DNA of 64,000 nucleotides from an uncultured Planctomycetaceae bacterium (GTDB taxonomy: Bacteria; Planctomycetota; Phycisphaerae; SM23-33). This document shows, piece by piece, positions 21,972-59,818 of this stretch (positions are counted from its first letter, which is position 1; every line of letters starts with the position of its first letter). The stretch is taken from positions 2,414-66,413 of the forward strand of contig CAYYMD010000008.1 of assembly GCA_964472875.1 (NCBI GenBank), written 5' to 3'. Made by a program: the position numbers and the translations under genes. The notes below the pieces were generated by a model that had not been told where the DNA came from, ran no database searches, and saw nothing but the letters and a program-made list of their open reading frames with translations.

Positions 21972-22000
21972 TCAAACGAAAGACAGCAGGATCCGCCGTA

Positions 22001-23764: not shown

Positions 23765-23790
23765 ACCGACAGGCGAAAAATTCATCTAAG

Positions 23791-23989: not shown

Positions 23990-28535
<4,546 letters not shown>

Positions 28536-28543
<8 letters not shown>

Positions 28544-35060: not shown

Positions 35061-35278
35061 TATATGACAAAGGGACAAATTTTTTTTCAAATTAGCGAGA
35101 CCCTTTTACGCTTGGTGAGTTAAATAATATGTGACGCACGAAATGTCGGGTTCGCCCGCCTAAGGCGTCTCGGCCGCCGAGAAAGCGTGCGGCGTTGCAT
35201 TTCGCGATACAGGATTGACTTGAGGATTTGCAAAAGAAAGACAGCCGGAAATTTTATCGGACCGGCGCAAGTAAATTT

Positions 35279-35839: not shown

Positions 35840-35842
35840 CAG

Positions 35843-39975: not shown

Positions 39976-41076
39976 TCAGATGAACTTTTTCTTTTTCGGC
40001 AGTTTCCCTTTTACGTAGTTCAGGTGGTCCACCACGTTGTCCCACAGGGGGTTGTTTTTTTCCGGTTCCGGTTCGCTGGTGGCCGGTATCATTTCCAGGA
40101 GCTTCTCGAAAGCGGTGTGGGCATCTTCCCACTGTTCGTTCTGCTCGAGCACATAGGCCTTGTGGTACTGGTTAATTACACGGTTTATCAGCTCCGTTTC
40201 GGCCTTGGCGTAAATCCGTTCATCCGCTATTCGCTCGAAATCCGACCGGTTGGTGTAGGCCAGGTAAAGTTTGAAATACTTCACCGACCGATAAAGATTG
40301 CCTGGCTCCTGTTCTATGTTACGGTCTTCGTAGAGCATTCTGGCTTTATTGACTGCCCGCTCGGCTTTTACAGGGTTGCGGTGCTTGTTGGGGATGGGTT
40401 CCCGCAGGATGCTGCGTATTTTATTATCATCGAGTGCGGGCGGCGCCTTTGTTTGAACGGCCGATCCGCCTCGAAGGCGTGACAGAAGGGCGATGACGAA
40501 TATTATCACCCCCATGTAAACGCCGAAAATTATCAGATAGCGTTTGAGTTTCTTCTTTTTCTCCGCCTTCTGTTGCTTTTCCTCTTCGGTCAGCATTTCC
40601 GGCGATTCTTCCTGCTCGTCCTGCTCGGCGGGCTCGGGCGCGGATTTTCTCGGCGGCGGTTTGGGTTTTTCTTCCTCGGGCAGCTCCTGTTGCTCTTGCT
40701 CTTTTTCCTCCGGTGGGGGGGCATGTTCGGCGAGATAGTCGGCTACCGCCTGCTCGACATCGTCGCCGGCGGCTACGAACAATATCTTCGTTTCGCTGCC
40801 GATTTCAAAGACGTCGCCGGTTTCAAGCAGAATTCTCTTTTTGGGCTTTTTGTATTTTTTGCCGTTTATCCTGGTACCGTACGAAGAGAGATTGCGGACG
40901 GACCAACCGTCGGCGGTCAGTTCGAACTGCACCTGTTCTCTGGAGGCGTGCTGTTCATCCAATGTAATATCCGCCTGCGGCGACCTTCCCGCCATAGCGG
41001 AATTGCCGTCAATATCCACTCGGCGGTCTTTCTGCGGGCCTGACATGAAAACCAGTGTCGGAGCGGTCTGAGACAT
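39976..41076 (-). CDS. FHA-domain protein with acidic/Lys-rich linker, single TM helix and a periplasmic TPR-like domain (first gene of the Tad locus as drawn)
   Basis: N-terminal FHA RSPQADITLDEQHASREQVQFELTADGWSVRNLSSYGTRINGKKY...GDVFEIG. The TM helix is LIIFGVYMGVIIFVIALL. The C-terminal helical repeats show YFKLYLAY-type spacing. Confidence 0.6.
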   Translation of the reverse strand: MSQTAPTLVFMSGPQKDRRVDIDGNSAMAGRSPQADITLDEQHASREQVQFELTADGWSVRNLSSYGTRINGKKYKKPKKRILLETGDVFEIGSETKILFVAAGDDVEQAVADYLAEHAPPPEEKEQEQQELPEEEKPKPPPRKSAPEPAEQDEQEESPEMLTEEEKQQKAEKKKKLKRYLIIFGVYMGVIIFVIALLSRLRGGSAVQTKAPPALDDNKIRSILREPIPNKHRNPVKAERAVNKARMLYEDRNIEQEPGNLYRSVKYFKLYLAYTNRSDFERIADERIYAKAETELINRVINQYHKAYVLEQNEQWEDAHTAFEKLLEMIPATSEPEPEKNNPLWDNVVDHLNYVKGKLPKKKKFI

Positions 41077-42050: not shown

Positions 42051-42909
42051 TTTTCTTTATCCACAAAAATCCAAGCACGTTCAGCACTATGATAAGCAGC
42101 AGGATAAGCTTTCCGATACTGTCGACGAACAGCATTCTCACATCTTCGGGCGCGACCATAAGGTACAGGATGGTCAGCACCACCGCCGGCATCGCACCCA
42201 GCCAGCGGGCCGTGGCCCGGCCCTGCGCGGTGAGCGTCTGTACGCGGCTTTCGAGGCGCTGTATCTCCCTGACGCTGTCGGCAATCCGGTCGAGAGTATT
42301 ACCCAGGTTGCCGCCTCTTTGGCGGTGCGTCTGAAGCGCCGAAAACAGCAGCCGGAAATTCCCCGACCCTATACGCTCGGCGGCGTTATCCATCGCCTCA
42401 TCCAGCGACATGCCAAATTCGTATTCCCGCAGCAGGTGGGCGAATTCCTGCCTAAGCGGCCTGGGACCGTCGCGGGCGAGCAGCTCCATCGCCTGCACAA
42501 GATTCAGCCCCGCACGCACGCCCGAGGCGAGGGTCTGCACGCCGCTTACAAGTTGCTCATCGAGCTGATTCAGACGCTTGCGCTGAAGGTAACGAAGCAC
42601 CACCCGAGGAAGCATAATTCCCGCAACGGCGCCCAGAATCCCGCCGATTATCGAACCGGCGATGATGTAGCCCAGCAGAGTCAGCAGTACGAATACCACC
42701 GCAGTGAGTATGGTGACCGTTCGGGGGCTTATGTTAAGCAGCAGCCCGGCACGGAGGACGCGGTAATATCTTTCCTCCCTCCGGTGAACCAACCCCATTA
42801 GCGGTGGCCCGCCGAGGTAAATAGCCGCGGCGGTGGCGATGAACACCACGGCCGAACTTACGGCCGTGGACACGCCAAAAGCCATCATCTGTCCTTCGGC
42901 CCAGGCCAT
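42031..42909 (-). CDS. tadB: Tad/Flp pilus assembly inner-membrane protein TadB (GspF-like domain)
   Basis: GspF-like domain; paired with tadC immediately downstream of the CpaF ATPase. Confidence 0.7.
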   Translation of the reverse strand: MAWAEGQMMAFGVSTAVSSAVVFIATAAAIYLGGPPLMGLVHRREERYYRVLRAGLLLNISPRTVTILTAVVFVLLTLLGYIIAGSIIGGILGAVAGIMLPRVVLRYLQRKRLNQLDEQLVSGVQTLASGVRAGLNLVQAMELLARDGPRPLRQEFAHLLREYEFGMSLDEAMDNAAERIGSGNFRLLFSALQTHRQRGGNLGNTLDRIADSVREIQRLESRVQTLTAQGRATARWLGAMPAVVLTILYLMVAPEDVRMLFVDSIGKLILLLIIVLNVLGFLWIKKIVAVDI

Positions 42910-44789
42910 CAGGTGAACGCTCCTACTTCAAGAAATCCATCTTCTATCAGTGCTTCGGCGAAACGCGGTATATAGCCGGTGTGTCGCAGGCGGGCCTGGG
43001 ATGGGGCCTGTCCTTTAGGTGTGCGGAGGACGTAAATATCTTCGGTTATTATCTGCGAGGTTTCCGGGTCCATGGTTAGTATCTCGGAGATGTGTGTTAT
43101 TCGGCGGCGGCCGTCCGGCATGCGGGCTATTTGCGCAATAATATCCAGCGCCGCCACCACCTGTTCGCGTATGGCTCTCACGGGCATTTCCACGGCCATC
43201 AGTACCATCGTTTCCAGACGCATCAGCATGTCTTCGGGATTGTTGGCGTGAATGGTGGTCAGCGAGCCGTCGTGACCCGTATTCATGGCCTGGAGCATGT
43301 CCAGGGCCTCGGGCCCGCGGCACTCGCCCACGATGAGCCGGTCCGGGCGCATCCGCAGGGCGTTGCGGACGAGGTCGCGGATGGTGTACTGGCCCTTGCC
43401 TTCGATGTTGGCCGGGCGCGTCTCCAGCGACACCAGGTGGTCCTGGGGAAGTTGCAGCTCCGCCGAGTCTTCTATGGTTACAATGCGTTCCTCGGACGGG
43501 ATGAAGTGGCTCAGCACGTTCAGCGTGGTGGTCTTTCCGCTGCCGGTCCCGCCGGAGATTATGATATTTTTGCGGCCGAGCACGCACGCGCGAAGAAAAT
43601 TGGCCGTTGCCTCTGTGAGCGTTTCTCTTTCAATCAGGTCATCAATGGTGAACGGTATCTGGGCGAATTTACGTATGGTAAGCGTCGGCCCCGAAAGTGA
43701 CAGCGGATTAATAACGGCGTTGACGCGCGAGCCGTCGGGCAGGCGCGCATCCACCAGCGGCTGGGAGCGGTCCACCCTCCTGCCCACCGGAGTGATGATT
43801 CGCTCTATGATGCTCTGGACGATTTCATCGGAAAAGAAGCTCCGCCCGGTGTTCTGGACCATGCCGTCTTTTTCGATATAAATCTTGTCCTTGCCGATGA
43901 CCATAATTTCATTGACGTTCGGCATCTCCAGGAGGTCCTGAAGAGGCCCGTAGCCGAGAACAACATCCTCAATTTCCTTGGAGAGCATTCGGCGGACGAT
44001 GTATTCACGCAGTTCGGGCGTGGCTTGCTTGGAAATGCGCTTAATCTGTTCGTCCCAGCCGGACTCGACCATGGAGATGTCTTCCTTGACACTGTGCGGC
44101 GCCAGTTGCAGCGGGAACCGCCCGAGCACGTCGCCCACCATGCGGGAGATTGCTTCTTCGTGCTTGCTCTGGAGCGTGTCGGTTTCGTCGAAGCCGTAAC
44201 TGTACATCAGTTTCCCGGTCGCCCTGCGGGATATCTCGGTAACCACGCTGCGCCACAGGAACTCGCGCATGAGGTGTTCGGCCATGTCCTGGTCGACCTT
44301 GTCATAGTGGGAGTCAATTATGCTCGACAGGTTGCGCTTGATGAGGGCTACGTGTTTTTTGTCCTCGGCCGAGGCCAGGTGAGAAGCCACCCGCAGGTTC
44401 AGCTGCTCCAGAAGCTCGGCATGCATCTGCTGTTCGAGGTCGACGATTTTTTTCCGCGGCGAGACGTCCCGTTTGCCGGCGGCGACGCGCTTGGCCGTGG
44501 GCGCCATCATGTACAGACTGTATTCGCCTATGCGTATTTCGTCGCCGTAGCCGATTTTGCGGCGTTGCCTAGGGCCCACCGGCTTGTTCGTCACAATCGT
44601 GTCATTCAGGCCGAGCGACTCGATGTAAAAACTGCCGCCGTCCCAGAATATGCGGGCGTGTTTCCTGGACACGAAGGGGCTTTTGAGCACGACGTTGTTG
44701 GCGTCGTCCCTTCCTATGGATATATTTTCCCGGTCGACCTGGGTGACCTTGCGCTGGTCTGTGTATTGATTGTAAATCCAGATTTCCAC
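42909..44789 (-). CDS. cpaF: CpaF/TadA-family secretion ATPase fused to an N-terminal FHA domain
   Basis: FHA domain: ISIGRDDANNVVLKSPFVSRKHARIFWDGGSFYIESLGLNDTIVTNK...GDEIRIG. ATPase core: Walker A IISGGTGSGKTT, IVTIEDSAELQL, Walker B LIVGECRG, His box. Confidence 0.9.
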   Translation of the reverse strand: MEIWIYNQYTDQRKVTQVDRENISIGRDDANNVVLKSPFVSRKHARIFWDGGSFYIESLGLNDTIVTNKPVGPRQRRKIGYGDEIRIGEYSLYMMAPTAKRVAAGKRDVSPRKKIVDLEQQMHAELLEQLNLRVASHLASAEDKKHVALIKRNLSSIIDSHYDKVDQDMAEHLMREFLWRSVVTEISRRATGKLMYSYGFDETDTLQSKHEEAISRMVGDVLGRFPLQLAPHSVKEDISMVESGWDEQIKRISKQATPELREYIVRRMLSKEIEDVVLGYGPLQDLLEMPNVNEIMVIGKDKIYIEKDGMVQNTGRSFFSDEIVQSIIERIITPVGRRVDRSQPLVDARLPDGSRVNAVINPLSLSGPTLTIRKFAQIPFTIDDLIERETLTEATANFLRACVLGRKNIIISGGTGSGKTTTLNVLSHFIPSEERIVTIEDSAELQLPQDHLVSLETRPANIEGKGQYTIRDLVRNALRMRPDRLIVGECRGPEALDMLQAMNTGHDGSLTTIHANNPEDMLMRLETMVLMAVEMPVRAIREQVVAALDIIAQIARMPDGRRRITHISEILTMDPETSQIITEDIYVLRTPKGQAPSQARLRHTGYIPRFAEALIEDGFLEVGAFT

Positions 44790-44810
44790 GTTTTTTCCAG
44801 TGTGTGTCGA

Positions 44811-45617
44811 TTATCTCCGGAAGCCGCCGCCACCTGTGGACGCCCGCTCGGTCAGTGGCTCCAGCGTCGGATTTATTCTGGGCTTGGACAGCGAGGATTC
44901 CTTGGAACTGTTGACGTAAATCCAGGCAGCGCCTTTTTTGTGACTCAGGACGTTTTCCAGTTTCTTCGCCAGTTCGGGGTCCATCTGAAGCGTTATCGAT
45001 TTATACGTCCGGGGAACTTTAACGCCGGATCTTGTGCCCCTGGGCTGGTATTCCTCCCGCGGGTACTGGCCGCCTATCGCCAGAACAGGCACGTTCTCTA
45101 TAACCCGGCAGGTGGTATATGTATCGCCCACGGGAAGAACCGCCAGCACATCGACCCTGTCGCCCCAGCTAAGTACGGTGCCCGGGGCCTTGTCCGGGTC
45201 GACTTCTATGGTGACGGCCGACATGTTCTTGGGAATGTTATAACTGGGCCGGTCTTCTCCGCCGCCGGTGACGTGTCCCCACAAAACATATTGTCCCTTG
45301 TTCACGTTCCTTGTGAGTCTCTCGCCGTCGAGGAAGGACTTTTTCGTCGAGGGGACAGGATTCGGCAGCACGTCGTACACATCCTCCGGCACGGTTACGG
45401 TGCGGATGTCTTCTTCGGCTTCGATTTCGTGGCCGAGGGTTAGATACTTGTTATACTTGAGAAGTTTTACGGTTTCGCCCCTTGCGGCGCTGCGGACGTG
45501 TGCGACGTGCACATTGTAGATTATCACCACAATCACCGCCAGCACCAAGGCGGTTATCAACAGTCCCTTGTTCTTTATTCCAGGTTTGCCTTCGCCGTTG
45601 TCATTATCCTGGGCCAT
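44811..45617 (-). CDS. cpaB: Flp pilus assembly protein CpaB/RcpC (SAF domain)
   Basis: N-terminal TM anchor followed by SAF/CpaB-like beta-rich domains. Confidence 0.7.
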   Translation of the reverse strand: MAQDNDNGEGKPGIKNKGLLITALVLAVIVVIIYNVHVAHVRSAARGETVKLLKYNKYLTLGHEIEAEEDIRTVTVPEDVYDVLPNPVPSTKKSFLDGERLTRNVNKGQYVLWGHVTGGGEDRPSYNIPKNMSAVTIEVDPDKAPGTVLSWGDRVDVLAVLPVGDTYTTCRVIENVPVLAIGGQYPREEYQPRGTRSGVKVPRTYKSITLQMDPELAKKLENVLSHKKGAAWIYVNSSKESSLSKPRINPTLEPLTERASTGGGGFRR

Positions 45618-45632
45618 TAATGTCTCCTGTTG

Positions 45633-46253
45633 TTATTCGGCGGGCCGTACCGCCATAAATTCTATACGTATTATTTTCTCAAGAGTCGGACAGTTTCGCA
45701 ACCGTAGTATCAGCAATACTGTCCCGCCGTCGTCGTTGCGGATAAAAATATCTTTATCCGGGGATGCTTTACGGTCGCCGGCAGGAGGTGAATAGAATCC
45801 CATATCCCGTGCGATTTGCCGGTAATGTTCGCGTGTAGAAGTTTTGCTTGCCGGGCAGAGATAGCTTGCATGCTGGTAAAGATGTCCTCCCACGATCCGG
45901 CTGAAGGCGGCCTGTTTGACAGCACGGAGGGGTGGCGGGATTTTGGCCGGGTCGCCTTCCATTTGTTTGAGATTATTTCGTGCAGCCGTTGCGGGGTTTT
46001 CGGCCGATTCGAGCAGACCCTCAATTGCCATTGACGAAGGCGTCTGCGAAGTACTATCGCCGCCAACTGCCCCCGTATCGCCGGGAACGGACGGCCGATT
46101 CGCATCGCCGCCGGCGGTGAAAAATATATATGCCTGCCAGGCGGCGAAAACCACGGCTACCAGCAGGCAGAAATACAATATCGACTTCCAGAATAATTTT
46201 CGCCTGGCCGATTTCTCCTGCTCGGCGCTTTCGGCGTAATTAGGTGCATTCAT
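45633..46253 (-). CDS. Hypothetical membrane-anchored protein of the Tad locus
   Basis: Single N-terminal TM (SILYFCLLVAVVFAAWQAYIFF); no recognisable motifs; conserved operon position. Confidence 0.4.
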   Translation of the reverse strand: MNAPNYAESAEQEKSARRKLFWKSILYFCLLVAVVFAAWQAYIFFTAGGDANRPSVPGDTGAVGGDSTSQTPSSMAIEGLLESAENPATAARNNLKQMEGDPAKIPPPLRAVKQAAFSRIVGGHLYQHASYLCPASKTSTREHYRQIARDMGFYSPPAGDRKASPDKDIFIRNDDGGTVLLILRLRNCPTLEKIIRIEFMAVRPAE

Positions 46254-46267
46254 GGCGTGATTAGTCT

Positions 46268-46897
46268 CTACCAGTTGACAAGGTATAAATCGCGGAACGT
46301 TTTCCCCATATCGGTGCCGGGTTGAGAAACGTTGCTTAGGGTCTGATCAAGTTCCGAAAAGTAGACTTCGGAAAGTTCTTTCCAGCACCGGGCCTCGTTA
46401 CGGCGCCACTGTCTCCCGTCGCGGATGTGATAACTTTGCATCGGCCCGGTTATGAACTGACGCCAATAACTCTGTGGTGGGGGGAATTCCACCGTCAATT
46501 CCGTGCCATGGCCACGGGGGTATTTTTCGACAACAGTTTCGCGCACAAATTCTTCGGCGGGGCTGTAATCTTCGCCCGATTTGGCGGCCAGTGCGTGCAG
46601 TGTATCTTCGGGGCCGTCGCTGTTTCTTCGGTGGACTATTTCCCCGCCGCCGGAAAGGAACAAATCCTCCAGCCGAAGACCGGATGGCCATCCTCCCCCC
46701 TTGGCGCTCTTCCAGGCCGAGTATCTGCTGGCGATCTTCACCTGCTGTTTATTCCTGTTGGCCCAGCCGAAAAAGAAAATCAGACTGATTATCATCGCCA
46801 GAAACGGAATGCTGACCACCGTCTCGAAGATTGCGCTGCCGGACTGTTTATGCCGACGCCGGCGGTGCGGGAAAGTTGTTTTTATAAGTTTGTGCAT
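46268..46897 (-). CDS. TadE-like pseudopilin/assembly protein
   Basis: N-terminal TadE-like segment SGSAIFETVVSIPFLAMIISLIFFFGW. Confidence 0.6.
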   Translation of the reverse strand: MHKLIKTTFPHRRRRHKQSGSAIFETVVSIPFLAMIISLIFFFGWANRNKQQVKIASRYSAWKSAKGGGWPSGLRLEDLFLSGGGEIVHRRNSDGPEDTLHALAAKSGEDYSPAEEFVRETVVEKYPRGHGTELTVEFPPPQSYWRQFITGPMQSYHIRDGRQWRRNEARCWKELSEVYFSELDQTLSNVSQPGTDMGKTFRDLYLVNW

Positions 46898-46918
46898 GTT
46901 TCAGTGTTATTTTGCGAA

Positions 46919-48997
46919 TCAGTGCTTAATGTACATCTCGGCCATGTCCTCGTCCACGGCCATCATGTACTCATATACCTTTTGCAGTTCGTCGTAAGTC
47001 AACAGGTGGCCGACCGAATCTATCTCCGATGAGCCCTCGTCGAGCCGCCAGGCCCAGTCCCGCCACTTGCTAACGGGCATCAGAGCGGTTTGCCAGTCCT
47101 GTGTCCACAAATCGAAACTTGAATTATTGAACACCTTGGATTGCGATACCGCCACCATTTGTTCGGCAGGGTTGGGGTTTTGGAAACGGTTCGACCAGAC
47201 CGTGCTGACGTCCCCGGCTCCGCCGACGCCAAGGTAGGTAAAGTATTCCCTGCGGAAACCCTCGTCGGGGTCCGAGCGGTATTCAGGCGCCGGGCCAGGA
47301 TCGTAATCGCCTGTGGAGGTGTCCAGCAACATAGGCGCCGGCAGTTCCGCGTACTGGTCCCAGTTACACGGATTGTCTATTTCCACCTCCGCGCCTACGT
47401 CAATACCGCCGAATGTATACCACGCAACCACGTAGACATCCTGGAACAGCGGCTCGCCGGTCATAGGATCGACTTTTTCCTGAATGCCTATCCGGTGATC
47501 ATAGGTGGTCTGGTAGGTGTAACTGTCTTTCCAGACGTAATTAGATACCATCGGCACCGACCAGTTCTCCGGGTCGTTCCAGCCGGGAGTCCAGATTGAG
47601 ATGGGATACTTGCCGTTGGTGTAATATGTTCCGGGGCTGAGCCAGTTGGGTGAATTCTCCGGAACGGAAGACACTATCTCCACCAGATAAAACATGGTGC
47701 GGTCAACACTCACATCATTGCGCTGGGCCGTTTCTCGCGCGGTGGGGTAATCCGTTATCCATTGTGGGTAATGTATGGTCTGCCGTGTTCCTGAGTCAAA
47801 CATGTAGCCCAGTTTGATGTCGGCGATTTTGCGGATGTAATGATAAAAATAGGTATCGGGCAGTTTGCCGCGGTGGTGCCGGCCGTGATCATACGCCCAC
47901 CAGTTTATGCGATCCATCGCCCAGTGATAAGGACCTTCAGCGCCATACCCGATGTGTACACGGTTAGTTACATTTCTCCAGTGTCCCGGGCGTCCTCCGC
48001 TTCTCTGTTTGGCCGAGGCCCCGACGCGCCTGCCGCCCACGTTCACGCTACCGCTGCCGCCTCTGACAAGCGGACCGGGGGTGCCCGGCACCCATTCCCT
48101 TCCGATTACCTCGGTCCTGTACAGAGGGTATCGCCAGCGATACAGGCGGGCCCACGGGCCCAGGCGGTGAGGCCACTGGCCGTCGGGAATAGCCCCGCCA
48201 CGTCCGCCGGTGTATCTGAATGTCGCGCAGTTGCTGTAAACGTGTTCACGTCCCTGGAGCGTGGGCTGGTAATCGCGAAACTCGCCGCGTTTTGCCGGTG
48301 GCCGCGGCACAACGGGAATCAGAAAGGCCGTATCGGTCTCGTTGGCCTGTCCGAATTGAACGGCATCGGCCTGCGCCAGCATGCCCGCGGCCTCAATGGC
48401 GGACTGCGAAAAATTATCCAGTGTGGTTACCGCCTGCCAGAATTTGCCGTTAGGCGGCGCGCTGCCTCCGCCGCGGATTGCCCAGTGCGTGGTCTGGTCC
48501 ATCTCGAAGCCACCCTGGTTAAGTGCCTCGTTCATGGCCGAAAGAATCTCGCTCTGGTGAAGCATTCTTTGGCGGAGAGATTCGAGCCCTTCGGTGAGGT
48601 ATGTCTCCGGTGTGCCCCGCGACACCTGGTTGCTTAGGGCCTGTTCCCAGGCCTGCAACTCTTCTGCCGACATCTGGACCGAAAGCGGCAGTGCATCCAT
48701 AATCGGAACCATTGCCAGAATGCGCGAAGACGCCACGTTGTTCATGGCCACCAGGTTCAGCGTGCGGGCTATCCAGCCGCCGCCGCTCACGGCCGCGGCA
48801 TCGGCGGTGTTCTGGCATTCCAGGCGCCGGTTGGCCTGGACCCCCATGTTCAGGACGTAAAACACCACTCCCACCAACAGCGTCATGGCCAGCAGCAGCA
48901 CCACCAGTATCTGCCCGCCGGCTTTTCGGCCGGGATATGGACGCCGGGCCCGAATGGCTACTTTCTGTTTCGATGCGATTTTTTTACCGTTCTGCAT
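46919..48997 (-). CDS. tadG: TadG-like large pilus-assembly protein (Tad/TadE-G-like N-terminal domain)
   Basis: 692 aa. N-terminal TM plus GQILVVLLLAMTLLVGVVFYVLNMGVQANRRLECQNTADAAAVSGGGWIA matches the TadE/G-like N-terminal family, followed by a long extracytoplasmic region. Confidence 0.6.
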   Translation of the reverse strand: MQNGKKIASKQKVAIRARRPYPGRKAGGQILVVLLLAMTLLVGVVFYVLNMGVQANRRLECQNTADAAAVSGGGWIARTLNLVAMNNVASSRILAMVPIMDALPLSVQMSAEELQAWEQALSNQVSRGTPETYLTEGLESLRQRMLHQSEILSAMNEALNQGGFEMDQTTHWAIRGGGSAPPNGKFWQAVTTLDNFSQSAIEAAGMLAQADAVQFGQANETDTAFLIPVVPRPPAKRGEFRDYQPTLQGREHVYSNCATFRYTGGRGGAIPDGQWPHRLGPWARLYRWRYPLYRTEVIGREWVPGTPGPLVRGGSGSVNVGGRRVGASAKQRSGGRPGHWRNVTNRVHIGYGAEGPYHWAMDRINWWAYDHGRHHRGKLPDTYFYHYIRKIADIKLGYMFDSGTRQTIHYPQWITDYPTARETAQRNDVSVDRTMFYLVEIVSSVPENSPNWLSPGTYYTNGKYPISIWTPGWNDPENWSVPMVSNYVWKDSYTYQTTYDHRIGIQEKVDPMTGEPLFQDVYVVAWYTFGGIDVGAEVEIDNPCNWDQYAELPAPMLLDTSTGDYDPGPAPEYRSDPDEGFRREYFTYLGVGGAGDVSTVWSNRFQNPNPAEQMVAVSQSKVFNNSSFDLWTQDWQTALMPVSKWRDWAWRLDEGSSEIDSVGHLLTYDELQKVYEYMMAVDEDMAEMYIKH

Positions 48998-49037
48998 ATT
49001 ACAGTAAATTATAGGCGTCGCGCCAGGCCCGAAACCT

Positions 49038-51764
49038 CTATTGCTCGAGTTGTTGCCGGGCCTGGGCTATGAGGGACTTCACCTCGTCGGTGTCTTTGTA
49101 TCTTTTGGCTATATTGAAATAGGCAATTGCGCCCTTGTAGTCATTGGCGTTCATTGCCTCACGACCTTTTTGGAGATTTTCCTCATAGTGGATTTCATCC
49201 GACAGCGCCTGAGTTTCTTTCGTATCGTTAATGTCCCGTGCCTGCTTGACGAGTTCCTTGGCATTAGCGAATTCGCGGTTTTCCAAAGCCGTCTTGGCCT
49301 GTGAGAGGTAGGATTTATACTTTCTCTCCCGCGTGGTTCTGGCCAGTTCAGCCGTGACCAGTTCTTTCTTGGAAGGGTCAATACTCCTGGCTTGTTCGAA
49401 TGCCGTGATGGCTTCTTTGTAATCGCCGTTGGCGCGGTGTTTTCTGCCTTCGTTAATTTTGATGCGGCTGCGACAGTCTTTTATTTTATCTTTGAGGGAA
49501 CTGTCGCTTTTGATTTTTGCGGCCTGCTGGTACAGTTCCAGGGCCTGTTCCCACTGTCCCTTGTTGTGGAGGCCGTCGGCCCGCCTGAGCAATCCCGCAA
49601 AGTCCTGTTCGCGGATTATCCTGTTGCGAAGCGATTTTGCCGCGGAGTTATCGGGATTATCGGCGAGTATTTTCTCCAGTTCCTTCAGCGCCTGGTCGTA
49701 TTTATTTTCGTCGTAGAGGCGCCGGGCACTGGTCAGCGACATTTCCGATTTGAGCCGGCTTATTTGATTCTCGAGTTCGGCTGACGGCTTGATATTGTTG
49801 GCCTTTTCCAGTGCTTCTATGCGGGCCGCCGTGTCGTTGTTCTGTTCGGCCTGGCGCGCCTCGGACATGGCGGCGGCGTAGCGGCTTTCCCTGTCCAGTT
49901 TTTCAATTTTTTCTTCTACAGTCTTCTGCAATTGGTTCCGCCGGGTAGCGGATAATTCCCGCGCAGTTTCGCTCTCGAGCATGGCCAGGGCGTCCTGGTA
50001 GGCAGTCCTCGCGGCAACGTAGTCGTCCTGGCCAAGCATTTCGTCGCCTTTGGAGACGTGCTCTTTAAACTGCTTTTCGAATTTCTTTTGTGTTGCCTCG
50101 GCCCTGAGTTGTCTCAGCCGCTGACGCTGCAGGGAAGTGAGCGTTAGGTTGGAGAGGTATTCGAGATTGTCTTCGGCCTCTGCGAAACGTTCCTCCTCGA
50201 GCGCGTTTTCAGCAGTTTGTATTTTGTCTTCGAAATCGCGGGTGTTCAGGCGATATTCCTCAAAGTCCCGGATTACGTTATCCATACGTGTGGTCCATTC
50301 CACGAACAGTTGGTTCTCGCTGCGCGCCTGAAGCTGCTGGATTCGTTCCGTGGCGTTGGATTCCTCCGCTGCCGCGGCGCTCCAGTTGCCGCGCAGTACG
50401 TTTATGTGTCCTCTGCACAGGTGAACCCATACGGATGCCTTGGCCGACTGGATGGTTCCTTTGAATCGCTGCTTTGTGGTCAGGTCCTGGAACCCGGCGA
50501 TGGCCTCGCGAAGTTTCTCGATGGCCTGATCCTTTTGGCCGATGTCGCGGGCCTCCAGGGCCTTTTCAAAATCGTCTTTGGCTTCCTCGAATGCCTGGGT
50601 GGCGGTTTTGCGCAGATTGGTCGCCTCCATGTGCTGTTTTACACCCCATGACACGCCGATGCCGATGATGCTTACTACAATAACGCCCAGCAATACGAGT
50701 TTTGTTCGCCTGGAGAGACCCTTGGAAGGAACGGGGGCGGTCGGCGGAGGGCCCTGCGGTTCTCGGGCTTCTTCGGCGGCTTCTTCGCCTTCACCACCGG
50801 CGGGTTGTTCGCCCGGCTGCTCCTGCGGCTGCATTTCTTCAGGAGGTCCGCCCACAGGCCCTGCCTGTGTCCCGCGGGCATGCCCCGAAAAGGCAGAGCG
50901 TATCGCCCTGCCCAGGATCTCCATATTTTCAAAACGCTGGTCGCGGTCCTTGGCCATCATTTTCGAGACGATGTCCGAAAGTGGCTTGGGCACCGAGGGA
51001 TTAATCTCGTGTGCTGGCGGGGCCTGGACTTTTTCGTTTCCGTGCCACTTCATCCAACGCAGGGCCTCGCTGTGGCGGTCACGCACAATATCCTGGAATA
51101 TTTCGTTGAACTTGTCCCTGCCTATGAGCATCTCGTAGGCGATAAAGCCCAGGGAATAAACATCCACCCGCTCGTCTATGTCCGTGCCGGCGAACAGTTC
51201 CGGGGCCATGTATTTGGTCGTGCCCAGCGGCAGAGACTCCTGGCCGGTTAATGTGGCGGCCACGCCGAAGTCGGTAATCTTCGCCCGCAGTCCCTCGCCG
51301 ACGATAATGTTGCCGGGTTTTATGTCGCGATGGATGATTCCCGCCGAGTGAACTGCGTTAAGCGCGGCGGCCAGTCGCCAGATTATCTGAAGCGTTGCCT
51401 TGGGGTCTACCGGCTGGCGGTTTTCCTCCAGAGACTGCTCCAGTGTGTGCCCTGCCACGAATTCCATAACAATAAACTGGCCTTGCTCGGTTTCCAGCAG
51501 TTCGTAGATATTGACAATGCCCGGCTGCTCCGGCGCAAGTTTGGCGAGGATTTGCGCCTCCTTGCGGAATCGCTTGAGCGATTCCTCGTCGGCGGCCAGT
51601 TGCATAGGCACCTGTTTGATGGCGACATTCCTGTCGAGCGTCGGGTCGTAACACTTATAGACGACGGCCTGTCCGCCGATTCCGAGCCGCTTGCGAACTT
51701 CGTATTTGCCGATTTTCGTGCCGGTCGGCATTCCCGGACCTTGTTGCGAGTTATTCTCAGGCAT
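49038..51764 (-). CDS. Hanks-type Ser/Thr protein kinase, single-pass, with a large periplasmic TPR-repeat domain
   Basis: Kinase subdomains LGIGGQAVVYKCYD, VAIKQV, HRDIKPGNIIV, DFGVA and TTKYMAPE. A Pro/Glu-rich linker and the TM helix LVLLGVIVVSIIGIGVSWGV precede a C-terminal region of about 550 aa of TPR-like repeats (AIAYFNIAKRYKDT etc.). Confidence 0.9.
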   Translation of the reverse strand: MPENNSQQGPGMPTGTKIGKYEVRKRLGIGGQAVVYKCYDPTLDRNVAIKQVPMQLAADEESLKRFRKEAQILAKLAPEQPGIVNIYELLETEQGQFIVMEFVAGHTLEQSLEENRQPVDPKATLQIIWRLAAALNAVHSAGIIHRDIKPGNIIVGEGLRAKITDFGVAATLTGQESLPLGTTKYMAPELFAGTDIDERVDVYSLGFIAYEMLIGRDKFNEIFQDIVRDRHSEALRWMKWHGNEKVQAPPAHEINPSVPKPLSDIVSKMMAKDRDQRFENMEILGRAIRSAFSGHARGTQAGPVGGPPEEMQPQEQPGEQPAGGEGEEAAEEAREPQGPPPTAPVPSKGLSRRTKLVLLGVIVVSIIGIGVSWGVKQHMEATNLRKTATQAFEEAKDDFEKALEARDIGQKDQAIEKLREAIAGFQDLTTKQRFKGTIQSAKASVWVHLCRGHINVLRGNWSAAAAEESNATERIQQLQARSENQLFVEWTTRMDNVIRDFEEYRLNTRDFEDKIQTAENALEEERFAEAEDNLEYLSNLTLTSLQRQRLRQLRAEATQKKFEKQFKEHVSKGDEMLGQDDYVAARTAYQDALAMLESETARELSATRRNQLQKTVEEKIEKLDRESRYAAAMSEARQAEQNNDTAARIEALEKANNIKPSAELENQISRLKSEMSLTSARRLYDENKYDQALKELEKILADNPDNSAAKSLRNRIIREQDFAGLLRRADGLHNKGQWEQALELYQQAAKIKSDSSLKDKIKDCRSRIKINEGRKHRANGDYKEAITAFEQARSIDPSKKELVTAELARTTRERKYKSYLSQAKTALENREFANAKELVKQARDINDTKETQALSDEIHYEENLQKGREAMNANDYKGAIAYFNIAKRYKDTDEVKSLIAQARQQLEQ

Positions 51765-51795
51765 TAATTAATATTTCCGTTATATCTTTTATAGT

Positions 51796-52686
51796 TCATT
51801 CGTCCCACGTCTCGACGTCGACATAATCCTGCGGTCCTTCGTTCGGCATGCGGCAGTGTGCGACTATGTCAATACCATAATCGCCGGCGCCGAAGTCCAG
51901 TTGCTTTCCGCCGCTTAAGACCGCAAAAACCCGGTCGGCATACGGCACCGATAAATACAGCGTATGTCTGACGGTTACTTTAAGGTCCTCATCCTTGGCG
52001 TATTTGTTGCCGCCACCGGCGGGCGGGGCCAGTGTAACGTCCGTATACTGGCGGGCGTAGTAAAGTTTTTTGCCCAGGTAATCCCTGGCCCACTTGGGCG
52101 TTGTTTTATTATAACGGCTGAACAGCTGCTGCAGCCCTTGCTGAAGTACGGCCGAATCTCCATCCGGCAATTCTTCGCTGGATGATGACACAGGCAACAC
52201 TGCCCATACGGCCGCATCCTCTATCATCCGCATCTTGGGCGATGCGTCGCCGGGGTACACTTCGTTGGGCGGCTCTTGGGGGAAGATATTCATCGGCACC
52301 GCCACGACCGCGCTGCGCGCTCCGCAGTAAGCCGCATAATGAACGGACATGTTTCCTGTCATCAGAAACATGCACTGGGTCATTATCATAACCAGCATAA
52401 GAGCAAACGGCAGCACCAGTGCGAATTCAAGTATCGCAACACCGCTTTGCGGGGATGGCCTTCGCCGGCGCCGTCCGGCCATCCACATCACACCGCACAG
52501 TCCAACCAGGGCCACGGCGCAAAACAGCATTACAACCCCGGCCAGTATGGAAATCCTGCTGAACAGTGCACGTCGTATCCACGGCGTTTTCGCGGCGGCA
52601 AATACGGCGGCCGCGCCGGCCGAAAGCAGCAGCACCGCAACGGCTGCGATAAACGCAACACGTCCTGTTCGCCATTTGCCGTTCAT
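51796..52686 (-). CDS. TadE-like protein with extra N-terminal TM segment
   Basis: SGVAILEFALVLPFALMLVMIMTQ matches the TadE N-terminal motif, preceded by an additional hydrophobic segment. Confidence 0.55.
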   Translation of the reverse strand: MNGKWRTGRVAFIAAVAVLLLSAGAAAVFAAAKTPWIRRALFSRISILAGVVMLFCAVALVGLCGVMWMAGRRRRRPSPQSGVAILEFALVLPFALMLVMIMTQCMFLMTGNMSVHYAAYCGARSAVVAVPMNIFPQEPPNEVYPGDASPKMRMIEDAAVWAVLPVSSSSEELPDGDSAVLQQGLQQLFSRYNKTTPKWARDYLGKKLYYARQYTDVTLAPPAGGGNKYAKDEDLKVTVRHTLYLSVPYADRVFAVLSGGKQLDFGAGDYGIDIVAHCRMPNEGPQDYVDVETWDE

Positions 52687-52689
52687 AAT

Positions 52690-53277
52690 TTAAAATCCAA
52701 GAATACCCCTGGCCGCCGGACCACCGAGCAGAACATCGACCAGTGCCCCGGCAGCGCCGATACAAAGCGCCAGGCCGAAAGGTATTTTAGGGCTCTCCGG
52801 CGAAGAGGGGCCCGCCGGTTTGCCCCGCGCAAACAAAAGGTAAAGGAATCGCAGTATCCGGCCCAGTGTGCGTTTTGTTATTTTCTTTTTCAACATTACC
52901 GCCAGGGCCATCACAGCGGCGACCGCAAAACCGTAAAAAAGAGTCGCCAGCGCCACTCCCGTGCCGCCGAGAGCGCCGACAGCGGCCATAAGTTTCACAT
53001 CGCCGCCGCCTATGCCTCCGGCCAGCCACGCCAGAAGTAGTGGCCCTGCGCCTACCAATACGCCCAGGGCCGCGCCGGCCAAACCTATGGACGCTGCCGA
53101 CTGTTTGCCGCTTATCCCGCCCAGGAATGTATGGCCGACGAGTCCGACGATTAAAGCCGGATATGTTATCACATTGTATATTTTGCCGCTGCGAACGTCG
53201 ACAATTGCGGATAACAACACCACTACGCCAAGAATCACAAGCGGCCAGTATTTGGCGAAATCAAACCACACACGCAA
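52690..53277 (-). CDS. tadV: Prepilin peptidase of the A24 family (CpaA/TadV type)
   Basis: 195 aa polytopic membrane protein. The conserved Asp context SAIVDVRSGKIYN and second Asp region resemble CpaA. Confidence 0.75.
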   Translation of the reverse strand: MRVWFDFAKYWPLVILGVVVLLSAIVDVRSGKIYNVITYPALIVGLVGHTFLGGISGKQSAASIGLAGAALGVLVGAGPLLLAWLAGGIGGGDVKLMAAVGALGGTGVALATLFYGFAVAAVMALAVMLKKKITKRTLGRILRFLYLLFARGKPAGPSSPESPKIPFGLALCIGAAGALVDVLLGGPAARGILGF

Positions 53278-53324
53278 ACCTCAGTCGGCGTCGCGCAATT
53301 TCAAACCGTTGATGAAAAGGCCGA

Positions 53325-53537
53325 CTAATCGGGCATAGTTTCTTCGGCGGATCCTCTGATCCGGCTGAAAAGATCGAGCACCCATTGCTTGATATCGCCG
53401 CCGAACCACACTACCAGCCCAAGCAGAGGCAGGGCGATGGCGGCTATGACAAGGATATACTCAATCATGTCAGCGCCTTGTTGGTCCCGATTGAGTGTGC
53501 GGAGTTTATTCATCATGCGTTTTACATTTTTTTTCAT
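53325..53537 (-). CDS. flp: Flp/Fap pilin (Flp1)
   Basis: 70 aa. Leader MKKNVKRMMNKLRTLNRDQQG, then ADMIEYILVIAAIALPLLGLV matching the Flp G/XXXXEY processing motif. RBS GGAGAGG upstream of the ATG at 53537. Confidence 0.8.
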   Translation of the reverse strand: MKKNVKRMMNKLRTLNRDQQGADMIEYILVIAAIALPLLGLVVWFGGDIKQWVLDLFSRIRGSAEETMPD

Positions 53538-53590
53538 TGGTTTCACCTCTCCGGCCGGTAACTTACAAATACTTCCTTCCTCGCCGGCCG

Positions 53591-53776
53591 TTACGGGAAG
53601 GGAAGGGTATGCAGAAATACCACCATACCGTAATGCACTGCCAGTAAATCCAGCAGCATTCTTATAACGTAAGCCATCGGCAACACGAAGGCCGCCAGTA
53701 GAAGCGCCCATTCTATGGTCGTCTGCCCCGCCTGGTTGGTTGCCGAAAGCGAGAAAAATTTTGCTATTGCCGTCAC
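53591..53776 (-). CDS. flp: Flp-like pilin variant (Flp2) with E-W in place of E-Y
   Basis: 61 aa. Leader ...ATNQAG then QTTIEWALLLAAFVLP. Start overlaps the upstream ATPase stop by 4 nt. Confidence 0.65.
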   Translation of the reverse strand: MTAIAKFFSLSATNQAGQTTIEWALLLAAFVLPMAYVIRMLLDLLAVHYGMVVFLHTLPFP

Positions 53777-54921
53777 TTCGCCACCGTTTCTTTATCGGCA
53801 TCCGCCGATGCCGCATCGAAAATTTCTTTCGTCAAATTCATCGAATTCCGAAGCATCCTGATTTTCGGCTCCCTGGAGAACGTGGATTGTTCTCCGGTCC
53901 ACCGCAGTTTTCCGGTTTCGTCCTTGGCCCTGGTGTCGTCGCCAAGACGATAGGAGAAGATATCCTTTACCTGGTACCTGCCCTCGGTGTCCAGCGGCAG
54001 GACCTCCGCCAGTTGTGTTATCTTCCTGCTTCCGTCGGAAAAACGCGTGGTCAGGGCTATAACATCAATGGCCGAGGCAATTTGTGCCCGCAGGGCATAA
54101 AGTGGCAACTCGACCTTTGACATCATCGCCAGCGTCTCCAGGCGGTTCAGCGCGTCCATGGCCACGTTTGCGTGCAGCGTGGACATGCTTCCGGCATGGC
54201 CGGAGGTCATCGCCTGTATCATGTCCAAGGCTTCGCCGCCGCGGACCTCGCCGATTACCACGCGGTCCGGCCTTAGCCGCAGAGACGAGCGGAACAGGTC
54301 GCGGATGGTTACTTCGCCGCGGCCCCAGCGGTCAGGCGGGCGCGACTCAAGCGATATCACGTGCTCCTGCTGCATCTGCAACTCGGCCGAGTCCTCTATC
54401 ACAACTATACGCTGGTGGTGGGGGATGAAACTGCTCAGGACGTTCAGCAGGCACGTCTTGCCGCTGGAGGTGCCGCCGGCAACGAGTATGTTCTTCTCGC
54501 CCAGCACGCATATCTTCAGATATTCCTCTGCCTGTTCGGTCCACGTTCCAAGCTCCACCAGGTGGTCGGCGTCGAAGGCGGTGCGGGCGAACTTTCTTAT
54601 GGTCATGCACGTGCCGTGGCGGGAAAGCGGTGCCATGATTATGTGCACCCTGCTGCCGTCCGGAAGGCGGGAGTCCATCAGCGGAAGTTCCGGGTTCATG
54701 CGCTTTCCGGTGTATTGGAGCACGTTGTTGACGGCCACCATCAGCGCGTCGGCGTCTTCGAATTTCGCATCGGTTTTTGTAATTTTGCCGGACCGCTCTA
54801 TGTAAATCTCATTCGGATTGTTTATCATGATTTCCGAAACTTCCGGATCCCGGACATACTCTATAACCGGCTCAAGAAAGTGCTCTATGGTACTTTCGTA
54901 AATGTTCGTATTTGCCGACAT
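53773..54921 (-). CDS. cpaF: Second CpaF/TadA-family ATPase (minimal, 382 aa, no FHA domain)
   Basis: Walker A LVAGGTSSGKTCLLN, VVIEDSAELQM, Walker B VVIGEVRGGEA. First gene of the minus-strand Tad operon. Confidence 0.9.
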   Translation of the reverse strand: MSANTNIYESTIEHFLEPVIEYVRDPEVSEIMINNPNEIYIERSGKITKTDAKFEDADALMVAVNNVLQYTGKRMNPELPLMDSRLPDGSRVHIIMAPLSRHGTCMTIRKFARTAFDADHLVELGTWTEQAEEYLKICVLGEKNILVAGGTSSGKTCLLNVLSSFIPHHQRIVVIEDSAELQMQQEHVISLESRPPDRWGRGEVTIRDLFRSSLRLRPDRVVIGEVRGGEALDMIQAMTSGHAGSMSTLHANVAMDALNRLETLAMMSKVELPLYALRAQIASAIDVIALTTRFSDGSRKITQLAEVLPLDTEGRYQVKDIFSYRLGDDTRAKDETGKLRWTGEQSTFSREPKIRMLRNSMNLTKEIFDAASADADKETVAK

Positions 54922-58412: not shown

Positions 58413-58635
58413 GACTAATTACCTCCACTGCTATTGCTTTGCTGCATATTGCTGCAACTCTTCTTTAATTATATCACCCCGCCTGAAATTCATTGCGCGC
58501 ACCGGCCGCCTGCGATAAAAGGGCAGTATATTTACGCTTTTACATAATTTCGCATCCCACAGCGGACAATTGCCTTGACAGTTTGTTCTGTGTGCAGATA
58601 TTTTTCATGTGGCATGTCGCGCAGGGAGCACAAAC

Positions 58636-59715
58636 ATGAATGACAAGCCGCTGACCGCAGGAGTGATAGGACTGGGCGTTCCGGGCAAATTGGTAGCCAA
58701 GGGCCTTATCGAGTGCGACATCGTTCGCCTGGCGGGCGTGGCCGACAAAGATGCTTCCGTCGCCCATAGCGTGGGAAGCGAGTGCCACGTTTCGGCCTAC
58801 GACGACAACCGCTCGCTCATCGTTGAGCAGCGGCCGGATGTTATTTTCCTTTCGGTGCCGCCGATGGATCGGGTGGACCTGGTTAACCTGTGCGCCTCCC
58901 GTGGAATCCACGTGTGGACCGACCCGCCCTTGGGCCGCAACCTCGCCGAGGCGGCCGCCATGATAAAACAGATGGACCAGGCGGGGCTGAAGCTTGCTGT
59001 GGGTCTGCACAGAAGATTCTGCCCGGGCTATCTTCAGGCCCGCCGGATGCTCGACAAATTCGGGCAGGTCTTCCTGGCAAGGGCGCACTACCTGTTCAAC
59101 TGGGGTGGGGATCTGGGCTGGCGGGGCGACAAGTCGTCGGCGGGCGGCGGAGCGCTTCTGGAACTCGGCTGCCACGTGATAGATATGGCTGTGAGCATGT
59201 TCGGCCTGCCGGAGGATGTTTACGGCGTTGTGGCCGGCGGCAACCGCCCGGACCAGACAGGCCAGCAGGAGCCGCAGAGGGTCTACGACACCGACGACAC
59301 CGCAACGGCGATCATGCGCTGCCCCGGCGGATGCACTGCCAGCGTGGTCACCAGCCGTTCGTCCGGACCGGTCAGCGAGTCACTGACTATCCACGGGCGC
59401 AAAGGGTCGATATCGGCCGATCCCAACACCTGCCTGCTGCGCGACCCGGACGGTAACATCCTGGACCGCACGGAGGAAACCATGCCGCTGGCGGAGGTTT
59501 ACGGGCAGATGGTGCACGCGTTCGCATCAGCAATTATAAACAATTCGAAGACCTACGAATGCTCCGGATGGGAATGCATGCTGCCGCTGGCGGTTATTGA
59601 GGCGGTATACCTGTCCGACCGGACATCCCAACCGGAAAATCCCGCCCGCCTTCTGAAAAACCTTGAACTCGAACCGCAGGACTGCCTTTGCTGCACACCA
59701 CCGCAAGATGATTAG
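58636..59715 (+). CDS. Gfo/Idh/MocA-family oxidoreductase (cytoplasmic, no signal peptide)
   Basis: Rossmann N-terminus LTAGVIGLGVPGKLVAKGL and C-terminal alpha/beta domain. Start at the ATG at 58636 (MNDKPL). Confidence 0.8.
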   Translation: MNDKPLTAGVIGLGVPGKLVAKGLIECDIVRLAGVADKDASVAHSVGSECHVSAYDDNRSLIVEQRPDVIFLSVPPMDRVDLVNLCASRGIHVWTDPPLGRNLAEAAAMIKQMDQAGLKLAVGLHRRFCPGYLQARRMLDKFGQVFLARAHYLFNWGGDLGWRGDKSSAGGGALLELGCHVIDMAVSMFGLPEDVYGVVAGGNRPDQTGQQEPQRVYDTDDTATAIMRCPGGCTASVVTSRSSGPVSESLTIHGRKGSISADPNTCLLRDPDGNILDRTEETMPLAEVYGQMVHAFASAIINNSKTYECSGWECMLPLAVIEAVYLSDRTSQPENPARLLKNLELEPQDCLCCTPPQDD

Positions 59716-59818
59716 TCTCAAATTAAGCGACACAGTTGGCACAATGAGGCATTTAATTATCAGGCCACTGGTTACACGAGGAAATTATTTATAATTTACA
59801 AGTTCATGGAGAATTGAT

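Follow-up and report, generated by a model that had tools for sequence, protein, structure and literature searches.

What is a receptor kinase doing in the middle of a pilus operon? This question is raised by a gene on contig CAYYMD010000008.1 of an uncultured Planctomycetaceae bacterium (assembly GCA_964472875.1), of which we analysed a stretch of 64,000 nucleotides (positions 2,414 to 66,413), referred to below as the window. The gene encodes a Hanks-type Ser/Thr kinase with one membrane-spanning helix and a large helical domain behind it, and it lies among the genes of a Tad-like type IV filament machine. The original prediction, made without database searches, had taken the helical domain for an array of tetratricopeptide repeats (TPR) that might act as a TadD-like scaffold. 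From our analysis it is most likely that the kinase switches the pilus motor on and off rather than replacing TadD. More specifically, we consider it reasonably probable that the protein is a dedicated receptor kinase whose phosphothreonine would be read by the FHA domain of the CpaF motor and by that of a second, bitopic FHA protein, thereby gating the pilus motor.

The kinase gene is a single ATG-to-stop open reading frame (ORF) of 908 amino acids (aa) at window positions 49038-51764. The ORF had been called correctly before, and its strand, which had not been given, is the minus strand. The gene and the parts of its product are as follows (pLDDT, predicted local distance difference test; AF2, AlphaFold2):

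49038..51764, minus strand: receptor Ser/Thr (Hanks) kinase gene, 908 aa (ORF, translation, Pfam Pkinase, orthologues)
50913..51704, minus strand: cytoplasmic kinase catalytic domain, residues 21-284 (Pfam, conservation, AF2 pLDDT mostly 80-96)
50712..50879, minus strand: disordered juxtamembrane linker, residues 296-351 (pLDDT 31-48 in the AF2 model, conserved motif)
50634..50711, minus strand: single transmembrane helix, residues 352-377 (hydropathy, conservation, AF2 model)
49041..50633, minus strand: predicted periplasmic all-helical ectodomain, residues 378-908 (AF2, Pfam TPR, profile matches, Foldseek, repeat register)
49041-49892, minus strand: six spaced TPR motifs, residues 625-908 (AF2 helices, repeat register)

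The Pfam model Pkinase (PF00069) covers residues 21-284 with an E-value of 3.7e-52 and 177.8 bits, compared to a cut-off of 31.7. Both the sequence of the 908-aa protein and its AF2 model correspond to a Hanks-type Ser/Thr kinase fold; in the full-length model (mean pLDDT 84.6) this fold is confident and the activation loop (residues 169-178) flexible. The catalytic motifs reported as intact in the original prediction were all present in the translation (VAIK at residues 47-50, HRDIKPGN at 145-152, DFG at 165-167 and APE at 187-189). In an alignment of 33 full-length orthologues the residues K50, H145/R146/D147, K149, N152 and D165/F166/G167 are invariant, and the same applies for T182/T183, A187/P188/E189, D201 and R277. 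The alphaC glutamate E69 is kept in at least 90% of these orthologues. Since every catalytic residue is invariant across the 33 orthologues, selection appears to act on catalysis and not on a scaffold alone. Judged from the alignment, the protein is an RD kinase under selection for catalysis, and it is probably active, as had been supposed. Furthermore, the catalytic domain contains an invariant motif that is specific to the family, R236-W-M-K-W-H241. The pattern RW[ML]KWH was found at 3/3 family loci and at 0/80 generic Hanks-kinase loci.

The sole hydrophobic segment of the kinase lies at residues 352-377 (Kyte-Doolittle 2.46) and carries K/R residues on its N-terminal flank. A transmembrane segment was seen in 75/75 family kinases for which this region was available, and the AF2 model contains one continuous 56-residue helix (352-407) that leads from the membrane into the C-terminal domain. 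Because there is a lone transmembrane helix and the kinase domain needs cytoplasmic ATP, the C-terminal 531 aa must, according to hydropathy and model, be extracytoplasmic in an N-in/C-out topology. The TPR domain is thus not placed in the cytoplasm, in agreement with its original assignment to the periplasm and with the N-in/C-out topology of published proteins of Planctomycetota that combine a Ser/Thr kinase (STK), a transmembrane helix and TPR (PMC11032199).

Between the catalytic domain and the membrane, the linker carries the motif P-T-A-P-[LIV]-P-K with Thr342 (codon 50739-50741), located downstream of an acidic patch. T342 is the one linker threonine that is invariant across 33 sequences, and a T-x-x-[LIVMF]-P motif not more than 45 aa from the transmembrane helix was detected in 74/75 family kinases. 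FHA domains commonly prefer a hydrophobic residue at position +3 from the phosphothreonine. Because the threonine is conserved, is followed by a hydrophobic residue at +3 and is situated in a disordered linker, we regard T342 as a candidate autophosphorylation site on which an FHA domain may dock, with receptor kinases such as PknB serving as the model.

The ectodomain had been described as a TPR array of about 550 aa. A helical repeat domain is indeed present and comprises 531-533 aa, but TPRs are recognisable only at residues ~625-908 and are spaced in a non-canonical way. Modelled alone, the ectodomain consists of 22 helices and nothing else (pLDDT 93, predicted template modelling score (pTM) 0.52). 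Pfam TPR_2 reached 55.6 bits, above its cut-off, and TPR models match three stretches within residues 678-800. The family profile matches consensus-TPR designs (E 1.6e-10), P58IPK and OGT over profile positions ~283-517 only, corresponding to residues ~658-892; for the N-terminal half of the ectodomain no TPR match was obtained by sequence profile. The TPR consensus has small residues at positions 8, 20 and 27 and a period of 34 residues. The six TPR motifs of the ectodomain follow each other at distances of 44-50 aa, each with a helix of 24-32 residues and then one of 14 residues, and several looser hairpins with helices of 35-39 residues precede them. Invariant Ala pairs 7 residues apart are present in the alignment of the 33 orthologues. 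A Foldseek search against the PDB returned TPR proteins at E~1e-6, yet with TM-scores of 0.09-0.15. In the model, the local structure is TPR-like, but taken as a whole the domain does not form a compact TPR superhelix.

Across the family, the ectodomain keeps a length of 515-560 aa despite a sequence identity of 25-33%. Conservation falls mainly on structural Ala, Tyr, Trp and Gly, and a clear conserved polar patch is absent. An exhaustive profile search with the ectodomain yielded essentially only proteins of ~900 aa with the domain at ~375-900. Some short ectodomain-only proteins (450-630 aa) were considered as standalone TadD-like lipoproteins, but were set aside as fragments or gene calls cut short. 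Of those examined among the hits from 150 representatives, some have no start Met or start inside the transmembrane helix, several keep the PTAPLPK motif, and none has a lipobox.

The kinase gene belongs to a 14-gene Tad-like operon on the minus strand (39976-54921), flanked by housekeeping genes, with trmD and rplS on one side and a CNNM/CorC transporter gene on the other. It had been described as embedded among pilus genes, and this is the case, with the TadE-like gene directly upstream and the TadG-like gene directly downstream. The genes accompanying the kinase follow in this order:

53773..54921, minus strand: short CpaF-like ATPase, 382 aa, without FHA (Pfam T2SSE, E 1.6e-57; conserved in family loci)
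53591..53776, minus strand: Flp-type pilin 1, 61 aa, with a G/QTTIEW processing motif (sequence; position conserved)
53325..53537, minus strand: Flp-type pilin 2, ~70 aa from Met94, with a G/ADMIEY motif (Pfam Flp_Fap, E 3.9e-5, ORF residues 110-143)
52690..53277, minus strand: prepilin peptidase (Pfam Peptidase_A24; conserved in assessable family loci)
51796..52686, minus strand: TadE-like minor pilin, 296 aa, with an N-terminal hydrophobic extension (Pfam TadE; conserved in family loci)
46919..48997, minus strand: TadG-like large minor pilin, 692 aa (Pfam Tad domain; conserved in family loci)
46268..46897, minus strand: TadE/TadF-like pseudopilin, 209 aa (N-terminus 'GSAIFETVV' followed by a hydrophobic helix; conserved in family loci)
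45633..46253, minus strand: bitopic protein, 206 aa (transmembrane segment 19-49)
44811..45617, minus strand: CpaB/RcpC (Pfam RcpC; TIGR03177 CpaB, 82.8 bits, above cut-off)
42909..44789, minus strand: FHA-fused CpaF/TadA motor ATPase, 626 aa (Pfam FHA, E 7.5e-17, and T2SSE, E 2.8e-60)
44490-44789, minus strand: FHA domain of CpaF, residues ~1-100 (Pfam FHA)
42031-42909, minus strand: TadB platform protein (Pfam T2SSF)
41076-42050, minus strand: TadC platform protein (Pfam T2SSF)
39976..41076, minus strand: bitopic FHA protein, 366 aa (Pfam FHA, E 2e-10, transmembrane segment)

The core of a Tad/Flp (type IVc) system is present, comprising Flp, A24 peptidase, CpaF/TadA, TadB, TadC, TadE/F/G and CpaB/RcpC. 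For canonical Tad systems, the use of one bifunctional CpaF has been described (PMC12019362). In the operon studied here, the tasks of extension and retraction might be split between the short and the FHA-fused ATPase.

More than 100 full-length orthologues of the kinase were found (883-954 aa, 37-44% identity, 98-100% coverage). All orthologues with a source name come from Planctomycetota, mostly from Phycisphaerae. Three of them, located on long contigs (L001-L003, 37-42% identity), occupy the same slot of the same operon in 3/3 cases. Two small pilin genes fill the Flp position in these loci as well, and the gene in the pseudopilin position matches TadE weakly in L001 and L002. Eighty further family loci were retrieved from metagenomes by the invariant R-W-M-K-W-H motif of the kinase domain, giving 83 in total. 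Each window protein was run against the loci by tblastn, and counts were restricted to loci long enough to judge. As background served 80 unrelated Hanks kinases retrieved by the universal motifs I[IV]HRD[IL]KP and GTTKYMAP.

The ectodomain was detected at 53/54 family loci, TadE at 56/60, the prepilin peptidase at 40/45, the short ATPase at 30/32 and CpaB at 27/33, and both the TadG-like and the TadE/F-like proteins were detected at 39/39. At the 80 generic kinase loci peptidase, TadE, TadG and CpaB were found 0 times, and the ATPase domain 7 times, mostly weakly. Within the operon the kinase gene is conserved and fixed in its place, with near-obligate synteny. Homologues co-occur with Tad genes almost without exception, which is the opposite of a family that is never found beside them. 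Measured against the generic-kinase background, this near-obligate synteny supports the earlier view that the kinase belongs functionally to the pilus locus.

Some gene calls in the operon deserve a comment. The 163-aa ORF at 53325-53816 (minus strand) is almost certainly a Flp pilin of ~70 aa starting near Met94; read in another frame, its long N-terminal extension runs across the neighbouring Flp gene (53591-53776) and into the 3' end of the ATPase gene. The TadE-like protein has extra hydrophobic segments (7-34 and 39-72) in front of the usual TadE N-terminal helix. Its homologues are long, too (283-313 aa), so the extension may be genuine rather than a mis-called start. For the 206-aa bitopic protein, no family match was obtained in Pfam or NCBIfam, and it was detected at 13/35 loci; its slot between the TadE/F-like pseudopilin and CpaB is conserved, and its sequence diverges fast. 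In L002, a small gene of the 23S_rRNA_IVP family (20511-20783) lies between TadB and TadC of the orthologous operon.

We call the operon Tad-like because the secretin (RcpA/CpaC) and TadZ/CpaE, canonical parts of the machine in diderms, were found neither in the window nor in the related loci. No Secretin domain occurs in any sizeable ORF of the 64-kb window. A tblastn search with Paraburkholderia RcpA gave 0 matches in the window and in 85 related loci (L001-L003, L084-L163, L073 and L166; 890 kb of operon neighbourhoods, not whole genomes). Of the positive controls, which came from the same reference locus as the RcpA query, CpaF matched 51 loci and TadB 29; tblastn is insensitive to divergent proteins, the Paraburkholderia CpaB control detecting only one locus. 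Either the gene for the channel lies elsewhere, or the machine manages without a secretin. Neither a phosphatase nor a secretin, TadZ or TadD was found in the rest of the window, and the last three were also not found within 10 kb on either side of the orthologue in L001-L003.

The proposed reading of the phosphothreonine would fall to the two FHA proteins. In the FHA domain of CpaF, the phosphothreonine-binding residues are G26-R27, S41-R-K-H44 and N68. At least 95% of 36 orthologues keep Gly-Arg and Asn, and at least 80% keep Ser, Arg and His. The second FHA protein, of 366 aa, consists of a cytoplasmic FHA domain, an acidic linker, a transmembrane segment (177-207) and a domain of ~160 aa that is periplasmic, helical and weakly TPR-like. 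Its FHA residues G30-R31, S45-R46 and N71 are conserved in 8 sequences. FHA domains retaining the phosphothreonine-binding residues and a Hanks kinase are thus encoded together, and the kinase co-occurs with the FHA region of CpaF at 29/32 loci. The FHA domain of CpaF also matches the model of TagH, a protein of type VI secretion systems (T6SS), weakly (TIGR03354, E 1.5e-10).

A variant of the operon surfaced by chance in the generic-kinase control set. This single locus (L073, positions 4508-12682, on contig JBBDNU010000172.1 of a Planctomycetales metagenome-assembled genome) encodes FHA-CpaF, TadB, TadC, a 324-aa protein with FHA domain and transmembrane segment and, at the 3' end, an 898-aa transmembrane Hanks kinase. 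The catalytic domain of this kinase is a distant relative (33% identity, with 'VAWMMWH' in place of 'LRWMKWH'), and its ectodomain is unrelated, non-TPR and without Pfam match. Kinase and FHA proteins are constant whereas the ectodomain differs, which provides independent support from a single locus.

A relative of the operon without secretin and without kinase was found in an alphaproteobacterium, on a plasmid of Rhizobium leguminosarum (L166; CP050516.1, 468846-483934). It encodes, in this order, a prepilin peptidase, TadE, a TadG-like protein (546 aa), two proteins of unknown function, CpaB, a TadA of 632 aa with a long N-terminal extension, TadB, TadC and an FHA protein. The order TadE, TadG-like, CpaB, long TadA, TadB, TadC and FHA protein is shared by both operons, whereas the kinase is present only in the operon studied here.

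The following chain of events may be envisaged for the receptor kinase. A periplasmic cue would act on the ectodomain and control the kinase; candidate cues are the state of the pilus or of the pilin pool, contact with the envelope, or a periplasmic component of the machine. The kinase would phosphorylate a threonine on itself, with T342 as the candidate, or on a component of the machine, and the FHA domains of CpaF and of its bitopic partner would dock on the phosphothreonine. At the TadB/TadC platform, docking may bring in the FHA-bearing motor or activate it, so that pilus extension would be gated. Phosphorylation might also choose which of the two ATPases engages, and a two-motor switch is conceivable. 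The invariant catalysis, the near-obligate synteny, the intact FHA pockets, the conserved linker threonine Thr342, L073 and precedents in other systems all favour this model.

Several observations weigh against it. Both the phosphorylation and the binding of phosphopeptides by the FHA domains are predicted here from sequence. [quoted passage not shown] No PP2C-type phosphatase was found in the operon or in the operons of L001-L003. The argument from the variable ectodomain draws on one locus (L073), and relatives of the operon lacking the kinase, as on the Rhizobium plasmid, indicate that this type of machine can work without a kinase in the operon. Furthermore, the tight length of the ectodomain together with its low identity hints at a geometric or structural role besides sensing.

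Two further readings may be considered. In one of them, the ectodomain would be a structural part of the machine, acting as a spacer or for alignment, replacing TadZ or RcpB or touching CpaB, and the kinase would report the state of assembly instead of a cue from outside. The constant length despite 25-33% identity, the rigid continuous helix of transmembrane segment and stalk (352-407), the elongated geometry indicated by the model (pLDDT 93, pTM 0.52, Foldseek TM-scores ~0.1), the position of the gene between those of the minor pilins TadE and TadG and the absence of several canonical Tad parts would fit such a double function. Conservation restricted mainly to structural Ala, Tyr, Trp and Gly, without a clear polar patch, and the different ectodomain of the L073 variant argue against it, and we consider it rather unlikely. 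The other reading, which we put forward as a tentative possibility, is that Planctomycetota carry a distinct, secretin-less Tad-like machine with two ATPases in which the receptor kinase is a core subunit. The rod-like ectodomain would monitor the filament or the envelope, the juxtamembrane phosphothreonine would dock FHA-CpaF, possibly in competition with the FHA-less second ATPase, and this phospho-switch, in place of one bifunctional motor, would set extension versus retraction.

The remaining explanations appear considerably weaker. It is true, as originally stated, that no TadD gene is recognised at the locus by Pfam and NCBIfam scans; secretin and TadZ are missing, too. The proposal that the periplasmic TPR array replaces the missing TadD as a pilotin or scaffold, with the kinase activity being secondary, draws on this absence, on the TPR-like hairpins in the periplasm and on the obligate synteny with the pilus genes. 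TadD itself is an outer-membrane lipoprotein with a signal peptide, a lipidated Cys17 and five consecutive TPRs forming a crescent, the groove of which binds the C-terminus of the RcpA secretin (PMC10499894). The kinase, on the other hand, has neither a signal peptide nor a lipobox, and its ectodomain is anchored in the inner membrane behind the kinase domain. A secretin as client was found neither in the window nor in the 85 related loci, in which the CpaF and TadB controls were detected. No pilotin was among the 50 listed Foldseek matches in the PDB (TM-scores 0.09-0.15) or the best 60 profile matches, and no NCBIfam match of PilW/TadD type was obtained, TadD being set apart here by its published description. 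Neither did the short hits examined from the 150 representatives include a standalone lipoprotein form of the ectodomain, and the L073 variant has a non-TPR ectodomain. Since TadD is also absent from relatives lacking the kinase (the Rhizobium locus and, according to PMC8460266, the Kil system), its absence can be taken as a trait of this Tad subtype that needs no substitute. None of the canonical Tad loci looked at on plasmids of Paraburkholderia, Moraxella and Rhizobium had an annotated TadD. We therefore regard the TadD-like scaffold, for which neither a lipoprotein signal nor pilotin-specific similarity nor a secretin client was found, as very unlikely.

It might also be that the kinase controls the pilus via targets other than FHA proteins, such as pilins, loops of TadB/TadC or a transcription factor, and that the FHA domains act independently of phosphorylation. 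Hanks kinases often have several substrates, and FHA domains that work without phosphorylation are known from components of T3SS and T7SS; the lack of a phosphatase gene in the operon would fit as well. The preservation of the phosphothreonine-binding residues in both FHA domains and the co-conservation of kinase and FHA proteins in two operon variants make this improbable. Finally, the combination of STK, single transmembrane helix and periplasmic TPR is common in the phylum (PMC11032199), so that a protein of this kind could merely happen to lie in the operon without a role in the pilus. The slot between TadE and TadG is, however, preserved in orthologues with as little as ~37% identity and on dozens of independent metagenomic contigs, generic kinases do not have such neighbours, and the RW[ML]KWH motif was found only in family loci. 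The synteny statistics effectively refute such a passenger, and its probability is close to nil.

Comparison with known systems places the proposed receptor kinase among several precedents. The PpkA-Fha/TagH-TssL system of the T6SS in P. aeruginosa and A. tumefaciens likewise has a bitopic Hanks kinase in the operon of a trans-envelope machine and an FHA protein that reads phosphothreonine. The periplasmic domain of PpkA is of the vWA type, whereas the ectodomain of the present kinase is a helical repeat. Moreover, the machine is contractile in the T6SS and a Tad-like type IV filament here, the FHA domain is fused to the motor ATPase here, and no PppA-like phosphatase is encoded in the present operon. 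In the T6SS, PpkA phosphorylates TssL, and binding of Fha to the phosphothreonine activates the system (PMC3953482).

The fusion of FHA and CpaF is a recognised architecture, referred to as 'class III' CpaF (PMC12019362). Class III systems and the Kil system of Myxococcus xanthus share with the present operon the FHA domain on CpaF/KilF, additional FHA proteins and the lack of TadD (PMC12019362, PMC8460266). Kil possesses the secretin KilC and one ATPase but no TadG, and a kinase is not mentioned in the main text of the study (PMC8460266), in contrast to the operon described here with its kinase, two ATPases, TadG-like protein and no secretin. For this system, in which the ATPase is fused to an FHA domain and several FHA proteins occur, an upstream phosphorylation cascade was postulated by its authors, who did not identify the kinase (PMC8460266).

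STKs of Planctomycetota with periplasmic TPR or WD40 arrays show the same arrangement of cytoplasmic Pkinase domain, single transmembrane helix and periplasmic repeats (PMC11032199). They have been described as expanded, mostly lineage-specific paralogues without assigned partners, and pili are not mentioned (PMC11032199). Unlike these, the present family is single-copy-like, syntenic in a pilus operon and marked by its own invariant motifs RWMKWH and PTAP[LIV]P. The pilotins TadD, PilF and PilW also possess periplasmic hairpins of TPR type in a type IV filament system; they are small lipoproteins of the outer membrane that bind a secretin and whose 34-residue TPRs are consecutive (PMC10499894), unlike the ectodomain described here with its 531 aa, inner-membrane tether, spaced repeats and no secretin partner found. 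In the archaellum network of Sulfolobus (ArnA with FHA and ArnB with vWA domain, the kinases ArnC/ArnD and PP2A) Hanks kinases and FHA domains also control a type IV filament (PMC5300886, PMC4858521). The Arn proteins, however, control the expression of archaellum genes, ArnA/ArnB never occur in filament loci (PMC4858521), and motor and FHA domain are separate proteins there.

No description of a Hanks kinase within a Tad locus was found in open-access papers and bioRxiv preprints. The architecture of STK, transmembrane helix and periplasmic TPR (PMC11032199) and the FHA-fused CpaF (PMC12019362) were already known. What appears to be undescribed is a Hanks kinase fixed in a Tad-like operon with two ATPases, two FHA proteins and neither secretin nor TadZ.

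Outside the operon, the window contains a nitrogen-assimilation neighbourhood at 17340-29960. It comprises genes for a sigma-54 activator with GAF domain (17340-18929, minus strand), an ammonium transporter (19107-20540), glutamine synthetase (22334-23764) and the large (23990-28543) and small (28536-29960) subunits of glutamate synthase. Five genes for oxidoreductases of the GFO/IDH/MocA type are located within 872-10245 and 58609-61144, and a 926-aa protein with HEAT repeats and a 3-keto-disaccharide hydrolase domain is encoded at 7465-10245; this set of oxidoreductases and the HEAT/hydrolase protein are consistent with a Planctomycetota genome. A gene for a sigma factor of the extracytoplasmic function (ECF) type (34506-35060) is followed by genes for a DUF3379-like protein (35228-35839) and a DUF3106 protein (35843-36433). 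The region 34506-36433 is probably a sigma/anti-sigma module.

Tad pili mediate adhesion, surface sensing and predation, and the control of FHA-bearing motors such as class III CpaF and KilF is the question to which this operon speaks. The genes for a kinase, for an FHA-fused motor and for a second FHA protein stand in one operon here and are conserved jointly across a phylum. This offers a concrete, testable wiring diagram, which names a candidate phospho-site and residues of the FHA pockets and contains two ATPases to be distinguished. If the kinase were indeed a core subunit of the machine, it would represent the kind of kinase input that models of FHA-type Tad systems, among them Myxococcus Kil, still lack. 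The operon also points to a Tad-like machine without secretin or TadZ genes beside it, in a phylum with an unusual envelope. For the Planctomycetota, moreover, a partner system is hereby assigned to one member of their large and mostly unassigned class of STK-TPR kinases.

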